From sequence record PX104379.1: a stretch of 64,000 bases of DNA. The stretch is one strand, 5' to 3'. Positions 25,622-37,430 of this stretch are shown here, one piece after another. Each line of letters begins with the position of its first letter. Positions within the stretch are counted from its first letter, which is position 1. The position numbers were made by a program, and so were the translations under genes. Source of the stretch: a phage. The notes under the pieces were generated by a model, which worked only from the letters and a program-made list of their open reading frames with translations, had not been told where the DNA came from and did no database searches.

Positions 25622-27715
25622 TTATCCTTGAACGAACTTGTAAGGCATGTTTGTAATATCTATGCAAGACGCAATAATTCCAAGAGATGATTCTACTTTC
25701 TGTTTAACGTTTGATGAAACAAATGATGCAAAGTCAACTCTGTCTTCTATTTCAATATCACCTGTCATTGCAACCAATTCACCAGTTTCCATTAAATGGT
25801 CTCCGTCATAGATTACCGATTCGGTGAGTTCTTCGGTGGTCATAACTTCAGCTTGAATGAGTTTTGTATTATTAGACGTGGTTCCGTCATTATTAGAAGC
25901 ATCAGTTATTTTATTAACTTTGACCATCAATCCGCGCGGTAGAATAACTTCAGCTTCTGTTGCTATTCCGAGACTTCCTGGATATACAACATTAACTTTA
26001 TGAGCTCCATCAATTACCCATCCTATTTGAACTTTAACGTATTCAGGATTTTCTTTATACGCTCTTATTTCGTTTGGATTAATAGTTATTCCTTCTTCAT
26101 TTTTATCAACTGTCAATTCATTACGAGTTTCTGGTTCTAAAAGACCAATACCAGCATGTGTAATTCCAAAACGTCCAAAAATGATAGGAGTTAAAGAAGT
26201 AGATACAAAATTTCTGAAATAGAACACTTTATTTTTAACTAGTGCTTCGTATATAGGAGCAGTCATACTTTGAGCACGATAAACTGTGATGCCTTCCGGT
26301 ATGCGGTCACCATTTTCAAAAGCTGAATCTAAGTTATTTATAGCAGATTCAATTTCTTTTTCACTCATTACATCATATCGTTCTGGATTGTAACGACCTA
26401 AAAGAAGATTATTAATGTCAGTATATCCTGAACCACAATATTCTCTAATACCGCGCTTTTGTGATGGAGTATATTTAGAACCATCGCGGGCAATAGTAAT
26501 ATCAATCATTGGACCAGCACCAATTCCAGAAAAACTGTAAATCATTCGTTTGAGGAATTTAGTTTTTGCTGCGTTCCAGGAATTTTTAGTTATTTCTTCC
26601 CAGACTTCATCTGGTTGTCCTTTACGATTTTTATTATGATTAGCAAGCCATTTATCTTTATAATCTTCAAAGAATTGATTTACAGCTGCTGCGTATTTCT
26701 CTAAACATTTTATTGAAGTAGTTGGTTCATTTTTAATTGCATTAAAAATTACTTCTTTAATTTTTTCTGAAACTTCACCGACTTGACTCATTGGAAAGAA
26801 TTTATAATCATAGTGAAGTTCATCTGCCGTTCCTTCAGCAATAATTTTTGCTGCCTTTGTTTTAGAAGCTAATGAATTAATTCCAATTTTCATTTCTTCT
26901 GCTTCGGGAATTAAAGGTGCAGTAGCTGGTTTATTAAAATTAGCTGCTGTAGATTCATACTTTTGGAATAATTCACTTTCAAATCTAGAAGATTCCAATG
27001 ACTGACTCTGTGCAATTGCTCTACGGGAAATTTTAACTTTAACGATTACAGCTTGGTCAGAACGTTTATCGTTTTCTTGCGCAATAGATGCTGCAATTGC
27101 CTCATTTTTAGTTACTTGAGCTCCGGTATCTTTATTAATATAAACATCGCCGACCTTCGATTCAACTTTAGTAAAGAGCTCGGTACTAATTTCAGGAACT
27201 CCTGGAATGTCTTCTAGTGATACATTTTTGCGATGTATAAGAATATATGCATACTTTTTATCGTAATCCCAGAGTTCCTTAAGAAGGACGTATCTGCCAC
27301 CTGAACGACTACGGATAAGTCTATCAGCAATAACTTGAATTTGTCGAGCTTGGCCAGCAGTTTTAGACTTAAGAATACGAAGCATACAAGCATCAATTTT
27401 ATATTGACGCATTGTTTGCATTGCAACAGTAAAAACTGAATTGATATAATTAATTGGGCTTGGACCAAGACCTTTTAATTTAGCAATTGAACCTTTAGCA
27501 GTTAATGTAAAAGGAACAATATGCATCATTTTGTCGCCCATTTTTAAATCGCGATTAGTATCACCTCCAGATGTATAGGTACATAAACGAAAGCCTGGTT
27601 GTTCAATTGCATCATCAACATGAACTGAAAAAATTTGTGGTATTTTCTTCTTTGGATTTAAGTTTGTAATCGGAAGAGTAGTATCTTCGTCAAATAATTC
27701 TGTAATGAGTTCCAT
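25622..27715 (-). CDS. alt: Alt ADP-ribosyltransferase (head-packaged, injected)
   Basis: N-terminus MELITELFDEDTTLPITNL matches T4 Alt as recalled; motifs YRAQ, NFVSTSL, EAEVILPRG; late promoter upstream; exact start codon +/-1 nt uncertain. Confidence 0.9.
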   Translation of the reverse strand: MELITELFDEDTTLPITNLNPKKKIPQIFSVHVDDAIEQPGFRLCTYTSGGDTNRDLKMGDKMMHIVPFTLTAKGSIAKLKGLGPSPINYINSVFTVAMQTMRQYKIDACMLRILKSKTAGQARQIQVIADRLIRSRSGGRYVLLKELWDYDKKYAYILIHRKNVSLEDIPGVPEISTELFTKVESKVGDVYINKDTGAQVTKNEAIAASIAQENDKRSDQAVIVKVKISRRAIAQSQSLESSRFESELFQKYESTAANFNKPATAPLIPEAEEMKIGINSLASKTKAAKIIAEGTADELHYDYKFFPMSQVGEVSEKIKEVIFNAIKNEPTTSIKCLEKYAAAVNQFFEDYKDKWLANHNKNRKGQPDEVWEEITKNSWNAAKTKFLKRMIYSFSGIGAGPMIDITIARDGSKYTPSQKRGIREYCGSGYTDINNLLLGRYNPERYDVMSEKEIESAINNLDSAFENGDRIPEGITVYRAQSMTAPIYEALVKNKVFYFRNFVSTSLTPIIFGRFGITHAGIGLLEPETRNELTVDKNEEGITINPNEIRAYKENPEYVKVQIGWVIDGAHKVNVVYPGSLGIATEAEVILPRGLMVKVNKITDASNNDGTTSNNTKLIQAEVMTTEELTESVIYDGDHLMETGELVAMTGDIEIEDRVDFASFVSSNVKQKVESSLGIIASCIDITNMPYKFVQG

Positions 27716-27737
27716 CATATCCTCTCTAGTGTTTATT

Positions 27738-27745
27738 CTATTTAT
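27738..27745 (-). promoter_or_regulatory. T4-type late promoter upstream of alt
   Basis: TATAAATA on minus strand about 25 bp before alt ATG, followed by GAGAGGA. Confidence 0.6.
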
Positions 27746-27750
27746 AAAAT

Positions 27751-27768
27751 TAAAGGCCCGAAGGCCTT
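27751..27768 (-). terminator. Hairpin between ligase-side ORF and alt late promoter
   Basis: AAAGGCC-CGAA-GGCCTTT palindromic hairpin. Confidence 0.45.
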
Positions 27769-27956
27769 TAATAATCTATTGGTAAGAGAGTACGATATAT
27801 TTCAAACTTTGGACCTTTTTCATAGGCATCAAATGTTTCTGTGAATTTATTATAAGCATATGCATCTATAAATTCAATCATGATTTGTGATACAGAAGTA
27901 GAAACATCTCCACCTTCTTTTTGAGCCACGACAATTGTTTCTAAGTAAGCTTTCAT
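27768..27956 (-). CDS. Hypothetical protein, 62 aa
   Basis: ORF overlapping ligase start, between ligase and alt; no motif. Confidence 0.4.
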   Translation of the reverse strand: MKAYLETIVVAQKEGGDVSTSVSQIMIEFIDAYAYNKFTETFDAYEKGPKFEIYRTLLPIDY

Positions 27957-29416
27957 AAACCAGTTACCTCATGAAAATCGCCAAATACATCTTCGAACGT
28001 ATTAGCTTTAGTTTTATCTTCACGCAAACGAATCGCAATCGGAAGAAATAATTTAACGTAATCAGTGCGGCCATCAGATTTTAACCAACCGTTGCATTCG
28101 CACTCTAGAATTTTTCCAATATAATAATTTTGGTTTTCCATAATGCGAGTACGGTCAAGTTCATGCGATTTTACACCGGCTTTATCTTTTAAGCCTGAAC
28201 CAGCATTTACTTTAATTTTTCCACACTCTGACTCAAGAATAAATCCACCTGCTTTAGTAGGGTCTTTACGGTGAGGATAAATTCCTACAATTTTTAAATC
28301 AACATCAATTACTTCTTTAAATTTATAGAGATTTTTTGAACGAGCATTTTCCCATAATCCATCGATATTTTTGAGAATAATACCTTCAAGACCTTGGTCA
28401 ATATACTTTTTGTAAATTACCTTAGCTTCATCTAGGTTATTTACTACTTGGTTTTCAATTAAAATTACTTTATCATAGCCTGATGTCATTTGTTCTAGTT
28501 TAGAAAAACGTACATCATATTTTAAACGAAATGCTGGAAGACCATATATTTCTACTAATGGAACATAGTCCCAGACCTGAAACTTCATGCATTGTGCTTC
28601 TTTTTCAGAAATGGTTCCCTTTAAAGATTTATTGGCGATGCCATTAGATGCAGTACGTGATTCAGCTACTTCGGCGAATTCTTTAGCTTTACTAATTTCA
28701 GGATAAGCATCAAAAAGAAAATCTAGGCCTTCTGGTTCCTTTTCAACTTGCTCATGGTATACCAATTCGCCATCAATTAACACACCTTCTGGATGAATCT
28801 GGCGGGCTTCAGCAGTCATTTTGATTAACTCTTCCTTAAGAAGATCTAATCCTAGATATTCATTGCCAGCTCGTGATAAAAGACGAACATCATCTAATTC
28901 ATCACCTCTGACTTCGGCAAAGCACCGAGCTCCATCAGCTTTTAATTGGGCAAAGGCTGGAAATTTGATATTCTTATTAATGCCTTTTTCATCATAAGAA
29001 CTTGCCAGCATTTGAGGTTGTTCAGGAATTAAACCTGGCCAAACTTTATTTGCAATAGATACTGATGCACCGCATTCAAGGTCTCGCATCATCACCCGAC
29101 GCAAAACTTCAACATCATCTTTTTTACCATCGGTGATGTATCCAGTTAATTCCTCAATCGCCGCATTTCCAGTCAATTTCCGAGTAGCTAACGTGAATTC
29201 AATGAAGTCAAGCATATCGGTAAGAGTCAACATTCCAAAACTCTGGGTAGCAATACCAGGTTTAGGCCATTTCTTGATATAATACTGTAACCCACGAGAA
29301 TAAGTCAGACGATATACTCGTTTAAGCAATTCATTATCTTTATTCTTTTCAAGAATTGCTTGCTTCTGCTTAGTTGAACCAATAGATGCTATTTCGTTCA
29401 GAATTTTAAGAATCAT
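27953..29416 (-). CDS. 30: ATP-dependent DNA ligase gp30
   Basis: 487 aa; adenylation motif QLKADGARC; N-terminus MILKILNEIASIGSTKQKQAILEKNK matches T4 ligase. Confidence 0.95.
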   Translation of the reverse strand: MILKILNEIASIGSTKQKQAILEKNKDNELLKRVYRLTYSRGLQYYIKKWPKPGIATQSFGMLTLTDMLDFIEFTLATRKLTGNAAIEELTGYITDGKKDDVEVLRRVMMRDLECGASVSIANKVWPGLIPEQPQMLASSYDEKGINKNIKFPAFAQLKADGARCFAEVRGDELDDVRLLSRAGNEYLGLDLLKEELIKMTAEARQIHPEGVLIDGELVYHEQVEKEPEGLDFLFDAYPEISKAKEFAEVAESRTASNGIANKSLKGTISEKEAQCMKFQVWDYVPLVEIYGLPAFRLKYDVRFSKLEQMTSGYDKVILIENQVVNNLDEAKVIYKKYIDQGLEGIILKNIDGLWENARSKNLYKFKEVIDVDLKIVGIYPHRKDPTKAGGFILESECGKIKVNAGSGLKDKAGVKSHELDRTRIMENQNYYIGKILECECNGWLKSDGRTDYVKLFLPIAIRLREDKTKANTFEDVFGDFHEVTGL

Positions 29417-29682
29417 TGTTCATCCTTTAGAGTTTGGTTTACAGCTTTATTATAAATCAATTCATCATTAAGCTCAGTCAAAGACCTGTGGTACGTTGTT
29501 CTAACTTTATTTCCTTGCATCCAGTGCTTGACGTAAATGAAACCTTGCTCTACACATTTTTTAAAAATTCGTTCGTCTTTTTGAGCTCGGAATTCTGGAT
29601 TGCATCTAAAAAATTGATTTACGTGACCGTAATCACGTGTAGTATTACCTTCATTTTCATAAATAGTGTGAACAACAAACAT
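29413..29682 (-). CDS. Hypothetical protein (position of T4 30.1)
   Basis: 89-aa ORF overlapping flanking genes. Confidence 0.5.
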   Translation of the reverse strand: MFVVHTIYENEGNTTRDYGHVNQFFRCNPEFRAQKDERIFKKCVEQGFIYVKHWMQGNKVRTTYHRSLTELNDELIYNKAVNQTLKDEQ

Positions 29683-30536
29683 TAGAATGCTCCTTGGAAA
29701 ATATTATCACCACTACCACTAGTAAGTCTATTAAAATACCCTGCATCGCCAGGCTTAATATAACTCCATGTATGGAATGGATGCATCTGGTGTGAGTGCG
29801 TATAATATGGATGATATGGATTATAAGGATTAAATCCAGGAGTTCTCCAGGTAGTGTTCCAACGAAAAGAATCGTTTTTAATCATCTTCTCGATTACATC
29901 TTTTATAGCTTTTTCACTATCAAAACTTTCTTTATTTTCATTTGGTGGAAAAAGCTTATTCTCTACATCATTCCATGTATAAACTCGCTGGGCGGTTTTT
30001 GGAATACTGTCACGCTCCCCTCGAGCCATCCAATAAACAGGAACATTTAATATTTCACTTGCATGATCGCAGTGGTGAGCGAGATCGTCAATATAACAAA
30101 TTACGTTATATTTCTCTTTTGCCTTTTTGAACAACTCTTCTTTTGAAGAATCATGACCACACATCAATACTTCTGAGAAGGCACCAGGAAAAAGAGCATT
30201 CAAATTAAATTGACGATTCAACAAAGCATCAATAGAATCACCCAATGCTGTAACAGCTACAAAATTATAATCTTCTTTTAATTTGTTAATTACACACAGG
30301 GCATCTTTATATGGAGACAAATAGCGAATAAAATCTGAACGATTATACTTTTCGATTAATTTAACACCGAGTTCTTCATCGCAATTAAAGAGCTTACCAG
30401 GAGAAATAAATTTTTCGTCCTGAATCATTTTTAAAATATGTTCTAATGGAAGATTATATTTTTGGGCAAAATAAGGAAGACCTGATTGCCAGCTTAAACA
30501 TACACCATCAATATCAGTCAAAATAGTAGGCTTCAT
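29682..30536 (-). CDS. HAD-superfamily hydrolase-like protein with aromatic/His-rich C-terminal tail (position of T4 30.2)
   Basis: N-terminal DIDGV motif and downstream YIDDL; C-terminal NPYNPYHPYYTHSHQMHPFHTW segment. Confidence 0.6.
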   Translation of the reverse strand: MKPTILTDIDGVCLSWQSGLPYFAQKYNLPLEHILKMIQDEKFISPGKLFNCDEELGVKLIEKYNRSDFIRYLSPYKDALCVINKLKEDYNFVAVTALGDSIDALLNRQFNLNALFPGAFSEVLMCGHDSSKEELFKKAKEKYNVICYIDDLAHHCDHASEILNVPVYWMARGERDSIPKTAQRVYTWNDVENKLFPPNENKESFDSEKAIKDVIEKMIKNDSFRWNTTWRTPGFNPYNPYHPYYTHSHQMHPFHTWSYIKPGDAGYFNRLTSGSGDNIFQGAF

Positions 30537-30997
30537 AGAGAGTCTCTTAGTAGGTTTAACACATCAATAAATTCAGCTTCGGTTAGTATTGTATCATCTT
30601 TTGTTAGACCACTAGCCATGCTGTGCTTCAAAACTTTTCCTTTTGAGGCTTGTAAGGCATCACGAAACCCCTTGTTTTGAATCGCTGCTTCAAAATATGC
30701 ATTTGTATACAACTCTTTCCACGCTGGAGAGTATCTTGAAAATGGAACTCCCAGCCAGAAGAGGGTCCCACGGTCCTGAGCTCTTGCATAAGACCTTCCA
30801 GCTTGTTGGGCGGCAACCCCGGATAACCCAAATATACGTCTTTGCTGCTCAACATTTTTCACCTTGCATCCTTGGAGGAATCCTTCGAGACCTCCAAATT
30901 GAATACCATCCATGACGAAAGGCCATTGGGCGAAATTACTTAATGCGCATGATGGCCATCTAAAATTGCTTCTAATCTCTAACTCAGACATTTTCAA
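30533..30997 (-). CDS. NADAR/YbiA-like (DUF1768) protein (position of T4 30.3)
   Basis: LSNFAQWPF..DG..F...EGFLQGCK resembles the YbiA/NADAR signature SNF..P...DG....EhyfQ..K. Confidence 0.6.
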   Translation of the reverse strand: MKMSELEIRSNFRWPSCALSNFAQWPFVMDGIQFGGLEGFLQGCKVKNVEQQRRIFGLSGVAAQQAGRSYARAQDRGTLFWLGVPFSRYSPAWKELYTNAYFEAAIQNKGFRDALQASKGKVLKHSMASGLTKDDTILTEAEFIDVLNLLRDSL

Positions 30998-31190
30998 TAC
31001 TTATAATTTCAACATCAGCCCAATGACCATAGCAAGGAAGACGAAATTCAACTGGCCAGTTAGGGTCCTTTTCTAATATAATAGACTTAACTTGTGGTTC
31101 TTCATGTTCATCAGTATATGGATTTTTATCTGTTACTTTATATGTGACCTTAATGTACTGAATTCCAAAAATCTTATTAATTATATTCAT
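30984..31190 (-). CDS. Hypothetical protein, 68 aa
   Basis: ORF in operon context, overlapping neighbours. Confidence 0.5.
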   Translation of the reverse strand: MNIINKIFGIQYIKVTYKVTDKNPYTDEHEEPQVKSIILEKDPNWPVEFRLPCYGHWADVEIISIENV

Positions 31191-31384
31191 ACTAATTCCT
31201 TTAATCCGTAAATAGGAGATAATTCATCACCCATACGAAGGTCTTCATTTCCATCTACCCAGGAAACAATATAAGCCTCTTTTATTTGAATACCACTCCA
31301 TTTAAATGGAGGTAGAACCTTAGAAATTAATCCAGGTATACCAACTCCCTTTAATTCAACAGTTTGACCTAAAAAGAATTTCAT
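31187..31384 (-). CDS. Hypothetical protein, 65 aa
   Basis: ORF in operon context. Confidence 0.5.
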   Translation of the reverse strand: MKFFLGQTVELKGVGIPGLISKVLPPFKWSGIQIKEAYIVSWVDGNEDLRMGDELSPIYGLKELV

Positions 31385-31671
31385 TAGAACCTCATCTGAA
31401 AACCGTGCGATTTAACATTACCGCCGCCAATATCAGAAATGTTAATTTCACTCGCAATTGAAGGGTCAATGTCAATTTCGCGATTGAGTTTAGTGATAGC
31501 TAAAGTATCACGCCCATTTACTGTACGGAATTCTAAAGGACAAACCACATCAACGTAATTTTTAATCGATTCACTGGTAGGTTGCAAATGAGCAGGAAGG
31601 TCTTTAGGCGCCTTTGAGAAAACCACTTCACAAAAATTTTTGCGGGTGTCAAAATAAGTAGTCATAAACAT
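31384..31671 (-). CDS. Hypothetical protein, 95 aa
   Basis: ORF in operon context. Confidence 0.5.
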   Translation of the reverse strand: MFMTTYFDTRKNFCEVVFSKAPKDLPAHLQPTSESIKNYVDVVCPLEFRTVNGRDTLAITKLNREIDIDPSIASEINISDIGGGNVKSHGFQMRF

Positions 31672-31712
31672 AATATTTTCCTCAGTAAGGGGCCGAAGCC
31701 CCTCATTTATTT

Positions 31713-32078
31713 TTAAATATCAAATTCGTTAAGAACTACATCAAAGATTGCTTCGAGATGTTCAGGTTTAGCTCTGTTACTCAGAATATGACGAATCCAA
31801 GTTTTAACCAAAAGCTTGCGATTAGCACCATTCCAGCAAGGATGAGTCCCTAAATCGCGTTGACGAAAATCATCATCCAGAGCGATTTTAAAGTTGGAAC
31901 CTTCCATTGTGATTGAAACCGTGATGCCATTTTCAAATCGCATATAAACGTAATTAGGAGTCATATACTGTTCAATTTCGCATACTGATCCATTTTGATG
32001 TTTCCAAAGGCAAATAGTATCAATAGAACCTGCAATACCATTAGAAACATATTTACGTTCAAAGTTGATGTAGTTCAT
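31713..32078 (-). CDS. Hypothetical protein, 121 aa
   Basis: ORF followed by GC hairpin. Confidence 0.55.
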   Translation of the reverse strand: MNYINFERKYVSNGIAGSIDTICLWKHQNGSVCEIEQYMTPNYVYMRFENGITVSITMEGSNFKIALDDDFRQRDLGTHPCWNGANRKLLVKTWIRHILSNRAKPEHLEAIFDVVLNEFDI

Positions 32079-32146
32079 TTTTATTCTCCGAGATGTTTAA
32101 TTGCGGTACAGGTATATAATATCATATCCTGTACCAAAGTAAACAA

Positions 32147-32479
32147 TTATTTTACTACTTTCCAGTGCTGCATGTCAAGTTTACCGACTTTTTTCATCTT
32201 CTCAATTAAACGTTCGGCACGTTGGCGAGCTGTAACATAATACCATTCACCTAATTCATTTTGTTCAATTTTTCCAACGATTACTGTATTCAATTCATAA
32301 ATCCAACCAGTAAAGAAATTATGAACTTGAATTGTAAAGGTGAAATCTGTTCCCATACCTTCTGTTGTTTCTACTTCAATAATATCACCTTCAACTGCCA
32401 TTAAAAACCACATAGTTTCATCATATTTACCATTGAAGCATTTAGTTTTAACTGCAGCGTTCAGATTAATCGTTTTCAT
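32147..32479 (-). CDS. Hypothetical protein, 110 aa
   Basis: ORF with AAGGAG ribosome-binding site and GTTTACA-type promoter upstream. Confidence 0.55.
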   Translation of the reverse strand: MKTINLNAAVKTKCFNGKYDETMWFLMAVEGDIIEVETTEGMGTDFTFTIQVHNFFTGWIYELNTVIVGKIEQNELGEWYYVTARQRAERLIEKMKKVGKLDMQHWKVVK

Positions 32480-32506
32480 TTTATTCTCCTTTGTTTGTGT
32501 AAGATA

Positions 32507-32536
32507 ATACTATCACAAAGGAACCATACTGTAAAC
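32507..32536 (-). promoter_or_regulatory. Candidate early promoter upstream of 110-aa ORF
   Basis: Minus strand GTTTACA, 17-nt spacer, TAGTAT. Confidence 0.35.
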
Positions 32537-32554
32537 AACTTTGTGCAATCTTTG

Positions 32555-32584
32555 GAAAATAAAAAAGGACTCCCGAAGGAGTCC
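32555..32584 (-). terminator. Intrinsic terminator after the 72-aa basic ORF
   Basis: Minus strand GGACTCC-TTCG-GGAGTCC followed by TTTTTTATTTTCC. Confidence 0.7.
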
Positions 32585-32589
32585 TCAAC

Positions 32590-32808
32590 TTATGCTTTCT
32601 GCTTACCAAAACGAGAAGCATCATCTCGAAGAACCGCACGTGCTCGGCGCATGATCTTCTCAACAGTTTGATTGATACGAGAGTTCGACCCACGCTTGTA
32701 GCCAGCGCGTTTAGAATCACCAACTTTCTTTTCAACTGCTTTCTTTGCTTTAACTTGTTTTGCCATTATAAATTCTCTTTTAAATGAAAATGCAGGACTT
32801 ATTGGCAT
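32590..32808 (-). CDS. Small highly basic protein, 72 aa
   Basis: K/R-rich ORF followed by strong hairpin terminator; an overlapping alternative-frame ORF is less likely. Confidence 0.5.
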   Translation of the reverse strand: MPISPAFSFKREFIMAKQVKAKKAVEKKVGDSKRAGYKRGSNSRINQTVEKIMRRARAVLRDDASRFGKQKA

Positions 32809-33011
32809 TGCCTGCGCAAGCCCTCAAGGGGAACATAGGTTTTTGGATATTTAACGACCAGGATAACCATAAACCCGTCATCATTCACATTCAAGAGGTA
32901 CACCATAAAACTGCCGGGGTCTTAAAACTATAATGATTCGCAAATCATTAATCAGACAGTTCGATGGCTCCTCGATTTTAGCTCACACTAAGGCAGTGAA
33001 TCTCCAATAAA

Positions 33012-33260
33012 TTACTTCAGTGTTACCACAAAGTGACGAACTGCTTTTCGTGCAGCAGAAGCCAAAGGCTTAGCATATTTAAGTTCATCTTTTTCCTGAA
33101 GCTCAGCAGCTAATGCAGTTTGAGCAGGATTCAGATGTTTGAAATAACGCAGGATTTCAAGAGCTTCGGCTTCAACATCAATAGATGCGCCATAGTTTTC
33201 GTGACCATTATTCCATGCGTTTCGTTGCAGTTCAAGAGCGTGTTGTAATTGTTTAATCAT
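33012..33260 (-). CDS. rIII: RIII lysis inhibition accessory protein
   Basis: 82 aa; position upstream of gene 31 and sequence as recalled. Confidence 0.8.
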   Translation of the reverse strand: MIKQLQHALELQRNAWNNGHENYGASIDVEAEALEILRYFKHLNPAQTALAAELQEKDELKYAKPLASAARKAVRHFVVTLK

Positions 33261-33407
33261 TTAAAAATTCTCGTTAGAGATTAAAACTCGGTAGTCACGT
33301 TCTTCTGAATTTCATCTTCTTTCGACAGATCTCTCAGTTGTAGACTACCACATAGAATTGTTCGGTTAACTTATTATTCCGACACCCAATTCATATTATT
33401 ATTTATA

Positions 33408-33743
33408 TCACTTATAAAGACACGGAATAGCTTTATAATGACAGGTAACGAATTTTTGTTTAATTTCTTTTGGCTGCTTAAGACCCAGAGCTACAAAAGG
33501 ATGCGGAACGTTTCGAATTTGACCAACTGGAAGAGAAGTCAAATCACCAACTTCACAAAAACCTTCAGGAACATCAGGACCGACAGAGTGAATTACACAC
33601 AGTTCAGGAACTTCACCTTGGACACGTTTACCGATAATAAGTCCTGATTCTGTAACTTCTTCATCACCGGCTTGTGCAGGTTCAGAAACTAAAATAACAT
33701 ATTCACCGACAGCACGAATTGGTAGCTGTTGTACTTCAGACAT
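33408..33743 (-). CDS. 31: Co-chaperonin gp31 (GroES analogue)
   Basis: 111 aa, [30 protein letters not shown] matches T4 gp31. Confidence 0.92.

Positions 33744-36226: not shown

Positions 36227-36227
<1 letters not shown>
36030..36227 (-). CDS. Hypothetical protein (cd.5 position)
   Basis: 65-aa ORF. Confidence 0.45.

Positions 36228-37430
<1,203 letters not shown>

Follow-up and report, generated by a model that had tools for sequence, protein, structure and literature searches.

The T4 gene 30.2 ortholog as a putative HAD phosphatase related to deoxyribonucleotidases, with a predicted disordered C-terminal tail

About 100 genes of phage T4 have no assigned function, and gene 30.2 is among the near-core ones. 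The window analyzed here, i.e., the whole 64-kb stretch of DNA, is a Tequatrovirus (T4-like) genome, and one of its ORFs is the ortholog of T4 gene 30.2 (Table 1). Tequatrovirus genomes match this ORF with 98% DNA identity, and the annotated T4 30.2 (NP_049815, UniProt P32275) is syntenic with it, lying between 30.3 and 30.1 and upstream of the ligase gene. The protein matches PHROG 420 (E 7e-91), and 30.2 is found in 1440 phage records across Straboviridae. A literature search on gp30.2 returned no biochemical or genetic data and no use of the name 'gp30.2', nor any paper joining 30.2, phage T4 and haloacid dehalogenase.

The genes 30.3 (NADAR/AdfN), 30.2, 30.1 (DUF3045) and 30 (DNA ligase) follow each other in this order and are translationally coupled: the stop of 30.3 and the start of 30.2 overlap by 4 nt, while the stop of 30.2 and the start of 30.1 share 1 nt (TAATG). 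The function of 30.3 as AdfN is taken from the literature (PMC11825919). The first-pass annotation placed the gene between DNA ligase and the NADAR-like gene, which is correct for the NADAR flank but not for the other, where 30.1 intervenes and the ligase lies one gene beyond. In T4-infected cells, the 30.2 RNA is classed as early and the protein as middle (PMC9697503 supplement). A promoter and terminator scan of positions 27500-33500 gave counts equal to the shuffle expectation and is therefore uninformative.

Table 1. The gene 30.2 ortholog, its neighbours and its features in the 64-kb window
Feature	Position	Strand	Basis
Gene 30.2 ortholog	29682..30536	-	ATG start, 284 aa + stop codon (ORF list)
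30.3 (NADAR/AdfN), upstream neighbour	30533..30997	-	Pfam PF08010, E 4e-70
30.1 (DUF3045), downstream neighbour	29413..29682	-	Pfam PF11243, E 1e-63
DNA ligase gp30	27953..29416	-	ORF; most constant neighbour of 30.2 homologs
HAD catalytic core + helical C1 cap, aa 1-195	29952..30536	-	AF2 pLDDT >90; Foldseek HAD matches; pN/pS 0.03
HAD motif I, D8-I-D10-G-V (nucleophile Asp + general acid/base Asp, by motif)	30501..30515	-	Sequence; D8, D10, G11 invariant
HAD motif II region, FVAVTAL with T96	30243..30263	-	T96 in >=90% of 48 homologs; end of strand 91-96 in model
HAD motif III lysine, K132	30141..30143	-	Invariant in alignments A1, A2, A3, A4
HAD motif IV, Y-I-D150-D151-L (putative Mg2+ ligands)	30081..30095	-	Sequence; D150, D151 invariant in A2; end of strand 145-150
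Linker helix, aa 207-223	29868..29918	-	Predicted helix; block 211-220 mean pLDDT 90; aa 196-224 pN/pS 0.19
Disordered aromatic/His/Pro-rich tail, aa 225-284	29685..29864	-	pLDDT, composition, frame, pN/pS
9-bp tandem repeat, 3.1 copies, encoding NPY-NPY-HPY	29805..29832	-	Tandem Repeats Finder
PGDAGYFNRLT, aa 262-272, degenerate copy of cross-genus motif G-I-E-Y-L-x-x-Q-P-T	29721..29753	-	Homolog comparison
C-terminal GDNIFQGAF	29685..29711	-	Invariant in 12 full-length Tequatrovirus sequences compared

Two motifs, DIDGV and YIDDL, had suggested a nucleotidase or phosphatase fold in the first-pass annotation, a reading that would fall if no HAD-fold match existed. Both motifs can be read directly in the sequence, at residues 8-12 and 148-152, respectively. 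The window protein has no Pfam or NCBIfam match at the curated threshold and no HAD model at E ≤ 1, and single-sequence searches of PDB, Pfam and NCBIfam returned chance-level matches only, such as thiamin pyrophosphokinase and RanGAP. The AlphaFold2 (AF2) model of the protein shows a Rossmann-like alpha/beta core and has a pLDDT above 90 across residues 1-195, and Foldseek finds 117 PDB matches at E ≤ 1e-3, of which the 50 listed are all HAD-superfamily proteins or enzymes engineered on a HAD scaffold. A strand (4-7) precedes motif I, and helices 16-26, 32-40, 46-49, 54-65, 68-72 and 77-86 form a C1 cap between strand 1 and strand 91-96. Furthermore, T96, K132 and D150/D151 each lie at a predicted strand end or helix start, as expected of a HAD protein. 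In the alignment of 48 homologs (A2), D8, D10, K132, D150 and D151 never vary and T96 rarely does. Alignments of 36, 48 and 42 homologs keep D8, D10 and G11 without exception, and 57 distant members do so for the two aspartates. G11, W16, S18 and R172 are invariant alongside the motif residues in the close-homolog alignments, and the four HAD catalytic motifs show little or no variation across about 100 homologs. The presence of the second motif I aspartate (D10) marks the phosphatase type rather than the dehalogenase type. The HAD-fold match was thus obtained from the predicted structure, and because the fold model, the Foldseek matches and the conserved catalytic residues agree, a nucleotidase or phosphatase fold is the best-supported reading.

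The ortholog of T4 gp30.2 is probably a Mg2+-dependent HAD phosphomonoesterase from a divergent NT5C-like branch that carries a disordered interaction tail; its catalysis, substrate class and tail function are what we infer. Following the HAD paradigm, an aspartyl-phosphate would form by attack of D8 on the substrate phosphate, and D10 would protonate the leaving group and then activate water. The phosphate would be held by T96 and K132 and the Mg2+ by D150 and D151. The helical C1 cap (residues ~16-86) would close over a small substrate with the invariant W16 stacking on the nucleobase, so that a (deoxy)nucleoside monophosphate would be the likeliest substrate. Removing phosphate from dNMPs seems counter-productive when the phage recycles those of its host, and the enzyme may therefore have another physiological substrate. 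The enzyme would belong to the early/middle replication and nucleotide-metabolism programme, because 30.2 is co-transcribed and translationally coupled with the DNA ligase gene.

The link to the 5'(3')-deoxyribonucleotidases (NT5C) comes from both structure and sequence profiles. Among the Foldseek matches listed, the lowest rmsd values (4.3-4.8 Å) belong to the deoxyribonucleotidases 2jao, 2i7d, 4yih and 1q92, and these four together with 3bwv align with TM 0.63-0.70. The profile of alignment A1 matches 2jao (E 0.022), with DvDGvlvkWqSgL aligned to NMDGVLADFESGL. The invariant W16 is thereby aligned with the Phe of this segment in 2jao, the mouse cytosolic deoxyribonucleotidase. Mammalian NT5C-type enzymes have a base-stacking Phe eight positions past the nucleophile, and W16 would by its alignment take the same role. 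The cytosolic and mitochondrial enzymes NT5C and NT5M (PF06941; 2jao, 2i7d, 1q92), as well as their bacterial homolog 3bwv, likewise combine a HAD core and a helical C1 cap at a comparable size (~195-200 aa). In common with NT5C/NT5M are also the DxDGV motif I, the aromatic residue eight positions past the nucleophile, the S-G-L turn, the DD of motif IV and a K/R-x-x-W/N-L-x-x-x-F-P segment after motif II. On the other hand, identity is 15-20%, and the window protein stays below the PF06941 threshold.

This homology becomes stronger among more distant relatives. Close homologs give sub-threshold matches only, to PF00702 in 11 of 48 (best E 3.5e-4) and to PF06941 in eight of 48 (best E 1.2e-4). 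A library search of 1.84 billion proteins yielded 1347 family clusters, and PF06941 is matched by 24 of 57 distant members (best E 4.2e-10), which makes NT5C their most frequently matched curated family. The profile of these distant members (A4) matches 3bwv, a putative deoxyribonucleotidase, over its full length (E 3.4e-6), the only full-length sequence-profile match in PDB, and hhalign joins A2 and A4 as one family (probability 100%). Since the window protein does not match PF06941 whereas the distant members do, and A2 and A4 are joined, the NT5C homology is transitive rather than direct. In BFVD, Foldseek finds phage proteins named as nucleotidases, such as the 'nucleotidase' of phiW-14 and the '5' nucleotidase' proteins of Erwinia phage. 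These have the same fold and size and are named by annotation only; with E-values of 1e-6 to 1e-8 and 12-17% identity, they represent different subfamilies. Ten multi-domain or longer relatives were scanned with Pfam for fusion partners and showed no informative extra domain. The 185,579 species genomes scanned for cellular homologs contain a single match, located on a phage-sized 178-kb contig. Taken together with the preferred reading, the 30.2 family would probably be a phage-restricted, divergent branch of the NT5C-like group.

The substrate is the point at which this placement is most easily questioned. By Foldseek E-value, the deoxyribonucleotidases cannot be told apart from other C1-capped HAD proteins (YfnB, dehalogenases and epoxysuccinate hydrolases), which share the top values, so that the substrate class depends on weak sequence bridges and a single aligned aromatic residue. 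The protein could thus be a small-molecule HAD phosphatase acting on a sugar phosphate, a riboflavin/FMN intermediate or phosphoglycolate, with its NT5C likeness reflecting the shared C1-cap architecture. Annotations of relatives point the same way, as homolog P0049 is named 'FMN phosphatase YigB' in one source and one BFVD match is named phosphoglycolate phosphatase. We nevertheless regard a non-nucleotide substrate as unlikely in view of the predominance of NT5C among the family matches of the distant members, the full-length profile match to 3bwv and the neighbours of the distant homologs, which are nucleotide and replication genes. These homologs adjoin a MazG pyrophosphohydrolase gene, with dCMP deaminase and UvsX nearby (Pfam). 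Clamp-loader-like ORFs, read from their translations, are also found close by, and in phage Paride their annotation is clamp loader.

The adjacent 30.3 gene suggests a role in ADP-ribose metabolism. Here, gp30.2 would work with the products of the nearby ADP-ribose genes (Alt ADP-ribosyltransferase and NADAR/AdfN), either by dephosphorylating an ADP-ribose-derived product or as the T-even factor for full AdfN activity, with its tail recruiting or stabilizing AdfN. AdfN does require an additional factor encoded by T-even phages (PMC11825919). The 30.3 and 30.2 genes, with their 4-nt overlap, are adjacent in Tequatrovirus, in the next two closest locus groups and in Acinetobacter phages, and they occur in nearly the same phage genera (1440 versus 1511 records). 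However, both genes are simply near-core in Straboviridae, where gene order is conserved, and arguments from adjacency are therefore weakened. The link with the NADAR neighbour that the first-pass annotation implied does not extend across the family: NADAR lies within 5 kb upstream in just 35 of 78 loci, and none was found within 4 kb of the two distant homologs examined (loci L004 and L005), whereas tblastn places the ligase gene downstream in 72 of the 78. An association of the tail with NADAR was rejected on contingency counts, as NADAR is next to eight of 26 long-tailed homologs versus 21 of 36 short ones. In addition, the products of NADAR are free ADP-ribose and intact DNA (PMC11825919), so no phosphatase step is required. 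On this evidence, a role in ADP-ribose metabolism appears quite unlikely.

The tight and widely conserved linkage to ligase in 72 of 78 loci could instead mean that gp30.2 acts as a polynucleotide 3'-phosphatase in nick healing for the neighbouring ligase, similar to the phosphatase domain of PNKP. A weak match to the polynucleotide kinase family phrog_415 (E 0.005) and the presence of PNKP phosphatase proteins among the BFVD matches are in line with such a function. The predicted architecture argues against it, as a C1 cap covers the active site of gp30.2, which has no kinase domain, while PNKP-type phosphatases are capless, leaving the active site open to polynucleotide ends, and are usually fused to a kinase. 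The phage moreover already encodes PseT (36227-37135 in the window), an enzyme of the same superfamily that also has a DxDG motif I and is likewise an early/middle nucleic-acid enzyme, but with a capless phosphatase that acts on polynucleotide ends. An hhalign comparison with this PseT aligns just 24 columns surrounding motif I, at 10% probability. We consider nick healing very doubtful, and an NT5C-like phosphomonoesterase remains the preferred reading.

Beyond the catalytic core, the protein ends in an aromatic/His/Pro-rich stretch of 60 residues, as the first-pass annotation had recognized; the segment it quoted corresponds to residues 226-268. Trp, Tyr, Phe, His and Pro make up 25 of the 60 residues at positions 225-284, a fraction of 0.417 versus 0.179 in the core. 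None of the 14,767 60-residue windows from ORFs ≥100 aa long in the 64-kb stretch exceeds this value, and the 0.03% of windows that reach it are all the tail itself; the composition is therefore far beyond chance. In the AF2 model, the 10-residue blocks from residue 221 onward have a mean pLDDT of 37-55. A second AF2 model, of the homolog P0045 from a Klebsiella phage, was built on an alignment rich in members of the GIEYL class and gave a tail pLDDT of ~42-53 and no sign of intramolecular docking of the tail motif on its own enzyme. Disorder of the tail is thus predicted in two independent models. Most family members are ~200 aa long and lack the tail, which appears to be a lineage-specific disordered extension found mainly in T4-like phages of enterobacteria. 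To our knowledge, no member of the NT5C/NT5M family has a disordered aromatic/Pro-rich C-terminal tail.

Metal binding and protein interaction were both proposed for the tail in the first-pass annotation. The former is unlikely as a conserved role and was rejected because the histidines differ among members of the genus, and because the tails of other genera, Trp/Pro-rich rather than His-rich, contain no more histidine than the cores (0.024 versus 0.025). A function in protein interaction is plausible, and the tail would most likely tether the enzyme to a protein partner. In a more specific proposal, gp30.2 is the additional T-even protein for full activity of AdfN (gp30.3, anti-DarTG1) and 30.3-30.2-30.1-30 form one cassette, in which the tail, co-occurring with gp30.1/DUF3045, tethers the enzymes at phage DNA. 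We find this highly improbable.

The tail evolves much faster than the core. Its pN/pS of 0.31 versus 0.03 in the core indicates relaxed but purifying selection, and 18 of 68 tail alignment columns contain indels, while the 195-residue core is nearly unchanged across the Tequatrovirus sequences compared (pN 0.005). T4 gp30.2 has the same tail architecture. With 278 aa, it carries GGIEYLYNRPT and a shorter Tyr/His/Pro repeat, in contrast to the T2-like GDAGYFNRLT module of the 284-residue window protein. GGIEYLYNRPT is present in T4, T6 and Sf21 at the position aligned to PGDAGYFNRLT, and the GIEYLxxQPT motif is shared by 26 long-tailed homologs, although their tails align poorly elsewhere. The repeat segment differs in length among T2, T4, T6, G50, Nami and others, and the 9-bp repeat is likely the source of the in-frame length variation. 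The tail would thus change length by repeat slippage while bearing a short conserved motif and a genus-invariant C-terminus. Although in-frame length variants are many, 500 Tequatrovirus genomes keep the frame of the tail, and nearly all tail matches among those listed have lengths that are multiples of three. A sequencing frameshift, the caveat of the first-pass annotation, or a read-through, with just the ~200-residue core being made, would fit the many homologs that end after the core and isolate KMB42 with its truncated tail, but it has next to no probability given a frame open in 500 independent genomes with length variants that are nearly always in-frame indels, a tail pN/pS below 1, a T4 annotation that spans all 278 aa and a KMB42 truncation caused by a private 56-nt duplication.

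As a HAD phosphatase, the gene 30.2 product is a mostly ordinary and modest find of a well-known type. If the tail or the enzyme were the missing AdfN cofactor, this would close an open point of a 2025 paper, which the present evidence makes unlikely. The placement as a HAD/NT5C-like protein raises the question of why a nucleotidase is kept beside the ligase in a phage that salvages dNMPs. The tail offers a natural example of how a phage enzyme can carry a disordered, fast-evolving extension in which a short motif stays conserved, and its partner, once found, could show how T4-like phages organize their nucleotide or repair enzymes.

Gene 30.2 belongs to a minus-strand run in the order alt, alt.1, DNA ligase gene 30, 30.1, 30.2 and 30.3 (see table). 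The first-pass annotation had placed it between the ligase and NADAR genes, which is nearly right: 30.3 is the NADAR neighbour, and 30.1 intervenes on the ligase side. Adjacent genes share 4 nt at the 30.3/30.2 and 30.1/30 junctions and a single nucleotide (TAATG) where 30.2 stops and 30.1 starts; 30.3, 30.2, 30.1 and 30 are therefore translationally coupled. Tequatrovirus phage DNA is 98% identical to the 30.2 gene of the window, and at least 80% of the gene is covered in 499 phage records. The syntenic T4 gene is 30.2, labelled 'hypothetical protein', and a 75-aa reading frame within 30.3 matches the position of the annotated internal T4 gene 30.3'. Against the compared loci L016-L019, the ligase is 99-100% identical and the Alt ADP-ribosyltransferase either 97% or only 71-72% identical, from which it appears that Alt has been exchanged or is diverging much faster than its neighbours.

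Coordinates of features in and around the gene 30 region of the window
Feature	Position (nt)	Strand	Details
alt	25622-27718	-	
alt.1		-	between alt and DNA ligase gp30 in gene order
DNA ligase gp30	27953-29416	-	
30.1	29413-29682	-	DUF3045
30.2	29682-30536	-	ATG start, 284 aa; read from sequence
9-bp tandem repeat	29805-29832		3.1 copies, encodes NPY-NPY-HPY; Tandem Repeats Finder
Y-I-D-D-L	30081-30095	-	aa 148-152; read from sequence
D-I-D-G-V	30501-30515	-	aa 8-12; read from sequence
30.3	30533-30997	-	Pfam Phage_30_3, E 4e-70
75-aa ORF	30628-30855	-	inside 30.3, other frame
121-aa ORF	31713-32078		positional counterpart of T4 30.7
Sigma-70-like promoter	32178-32149	-	TTGACA, 18 nt, TAAAAT; 11/12
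9-pair hairpin, then T-run	32565-32586	-	
PseT	36227-37135		

In T4-infected cells, 30.2 falls into the early RNA class and the middle protein class, alongside 30 and 30.1 (PMC9697503 supplement), which shows that the ortholog is expressed as a protein. The sigma-70-like promoter is near consensus and sits near the point where the 121-aa ORF begins, with the hairpin and T-run just upstream of it. The promoter/terminator scan revealed no terminator-like site between this promoter and the ligase, and a single transcript from it through gene 30 fits the sites seen.

Searches of Pfam, NCBIfam and, with the single sequence, the PDB gave chance-level matches only, and no curated model recognises gp30.2; it does match PHROG 420 (E 7e-91), a family of 'unknown function'. 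The first-pass annotation had proposed a HAD-like hydrolase with a nucleotidase or phosphatase fold from the DIDGV and YIDDL motifs, both of which are present together with the aromatic-rich C-terminus, and had suggested structure prediction. An AlphaFold2 model built from 48 homologs gives a HAD fold, with pLDDT > 90 across aa 1-195; strands alternate with helices, and the first strand leads straight into a helical insertion (aa ~16-86). Foldseek returned 117 PDB matches at E <= 1e-3; each of the 50 listed is either a member of the HAD superfamily or an enzyme engineered from a HAD scaffold. The lowest rmsd among the matches listed (4.3-4.8 A) belongs to cytosolic and mitochondrial 5'(3')-deoxyribonucleotidases (2jao, 2i7d, 4yih, 1q92), which score, with 3bwv, TM 0.63-0.70. 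Matches in the viral library include phage proteins that carry the name 5' nucleotidase or PNK phosphatase. In three alignments of 36, 48 and 42 homologs, no variation is seen at D8, D10, G11, W16, S18, K132 or R172 and little or none at D150 and D151; T96 is at least 90% conserved. By alignment, these residues are exactly HAD motifs I-IV, including the second Asp, which distinguishes phosphatases from dehalogenases. The core pN/pS of 0.03 within Tequatrovirus (12 sequences) is at the level expected of an active enzyme. The earlier observation is thus real and its interpretation essentially right. Assigning the fold is no novelty, since in several GenBank records 30.2 orthologs are already labelled 'HAD-like protein', 'putative phosphatase' or '5' nucleotidase'.

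The best PDB sequence match of the close-homolog profile is mouse cytosolic deoxyribonucleotidase 2jao (E 0.022), in which DvDGvlvkWqSgL aligns with NMDGVLADFESGL and the invariant W16 falls on a Phe. Searching 1.84 billion representative proteins with a profile yielded 1347 clusters at E <= 1e-3, mostly of 190-215 aa. Among 57 distant members, 24 match Pfam NT5C (PF06941; best E 4.2e-10), a larger number than for any other family; their profile aligns over its full length with the putative deoxyribonucleotidase 3bwv (E 3.4e-6) and with the mitochondrial enzyme at E about 1e-3. The close and distant alignments are, from their hhalign comparison (probability 100%, 196 columns), one family; gp30.2 would thus be a divergent member of the NT5C-like clade by transitive homology, itself falling below the curated threshold. 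The phosphatase domain of the phage's own PseT differs, aligning with gp30.2 over 24 columns at motif I only (hhalign probability 10%), and the predicted C1 cap argues against a polynucleotide substrate.

Of 78 IMG/VR loci surveyed with 5-kb flanks, 72 carry DNA ligase downstream of the 30.2 homolog, in some cases overlapping it; 35 have the 30.3 NADAR gene <= 5 kb upstream, and 25 contain 30.1. The product of 30.3 is AdfN, a DNA ADP-ribosylglycohydrolase of the NADAR type that overcomes DarTG1; it is fully effective only in T-even infections, so the authors of that study infer a phage co-factor (PMC11825919). By position gp30.2 is an obvious candidate for this co-factor, but the proposal has a low probability, as neither synteny nor tail statistics support a specific link and NADAR chemistry needs no phosphatase. 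Genes 30.2 and 30.3 are each present in about 1450-1500 phage records, and their genus distributions are nearly identical; this is consistent with two near-core genes of Straboviridae and restricts the conclusions that adjacency allows.

Outside Straboviridae, distant 30.2 homologs are surrounded by genes of replication and nucleotide metabolism: MazG pyrophosphohydrolase and a 3'-5' exonuclease in locus L092 and dCMP deaminase and UvsX in L084 (Pfam), clamp-loader-like ORFs in L090 and L092 (resemblance read from translations), and an annotated clamp loader and PhoH in phage Paride. In L092, a metagenomic phage contig (region 4646-5567), the MazG-family gene (Pfam E 1.6e-8) runs into the start of the homolog, and the pair is followed by the Rv2179c-like exonuclease and the clamp-loader-like ORF; this could be a module that works in two steps, from dNTP to dNMP and on to the nucleoside. 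A search of 185,579 bacterial and archaeal species genomes gave one match, on a 178,077-bp contig as large as a T4-like phage genome (NZ_JBHSCL010000010.1, Flagellimonas marina assembly), so the close family is essentially confined to phages. This homolog, 48% identical over aa 1-208 and much like those of Cronobacter and Klebsiella phages, probably marks a phage genome or contaminant within the assembly.

The last 60 residues (225-284; RWNTTWRTPGFNPYNPYHPYYTHSHQMHPFHTWSYIKPGDAGYFNRLTSGSGDNIFQGAF) contain 25 W/Y/F/H/P (0.417, vs 0.179 in the core), the highest fraction in any of the 14,767 segments of 60 aa that ORFs >= 100 aa provide across the 64-kb window. A frameshift error, raised at first pass as an origin for this tail, is countered by the presence of the last 249 nt in 500 Tequatrovirus records, with listed match lengths that include 225, 228, 231, 234, 237, 240, 249, 255 and 258 nt, each a multiple of three. 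Length changes fall in a Tyr/His/Pro repeat zone, the site of the 9-bp tandem repeat (see table). Among the 12 Tequatrovirus sequences pN/pS rises to 0.19 in the linker helix and 0.31 in the tail, where selection is relaxed yet still purifying. The distal module has two alleles, GGIEYLYNRPT (T4, T6, Sf21) and GDAGYFNRLT/FT (window phage, T2, G50), and the GDNIFQGAF at the very end does not vary within the genus. In Escherichia phage vB-Eco-KMB42 (L100, 701-986), a 56-nt tandem duplication shifts the frame and cuts gp30.2 to 253 aa, with the original distal tail still readable in another frame; the cause is either an error of assembly or a natural mutation that removed the tail.

Across genera, about 40% of unique homologs (69/166) have no tail (<= 30 residues past the core). 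G-I-E-Y-L-x-x-Q-P-T near the C-terminus is common to 26 long-tailed proteins and the endings ...LRAYY, ...LLNxxxND and ...WWN also recur; beyond these, aligning the tails is difficult. Taken together, the tails have an excess of Trp (3.4% vs 1.2%) and Pro (10.2% vs 4.2%) and none of His, which makes a conserved His role in the metal binding suggested earlier unlikely. In the AlphaFold2 models of the window protein and of a Klebsiella-phage homolog (motif-enriched alignment), mean pLDDT beyond the linker helix is about 37-55 per 10-residue block, and in neither does the motif dock on the core; from these models, the tail is best described as a predicted intrinsically disordered extension with a short linear motif. 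Neither its anatomy nor its partial conservation seems to have been described in the literature searched. Among 62 non-redundant loci, long tails go with 30.1 (15/26 vs 4/36 short; Fisher p 1.7e-4, phylogeny ignored) but not with NADAR adjacency (8/26 vs 21/36). In the metagenomic protein P0014 (302 aa), a tail-less 30.2 core and a 30.1/DUF3045 domain (precomputed Pfam PF11243) form a single ORF; this fusion and the co-occurrence may point to a functional link between 30.2 and 30.1, or only to shared ancestry or a lost stop codon.

Judged from sequence and fold, gp30.2 is the ortholog of T4 gp30.2, an expressed and strongly conserved protein predicted to be a HAD phosphatase, from a branch that is NT5C-like and restricted to phages; its disordered tail is lineage-specific, and its substrate is most probably a nucleoside monophosphate.
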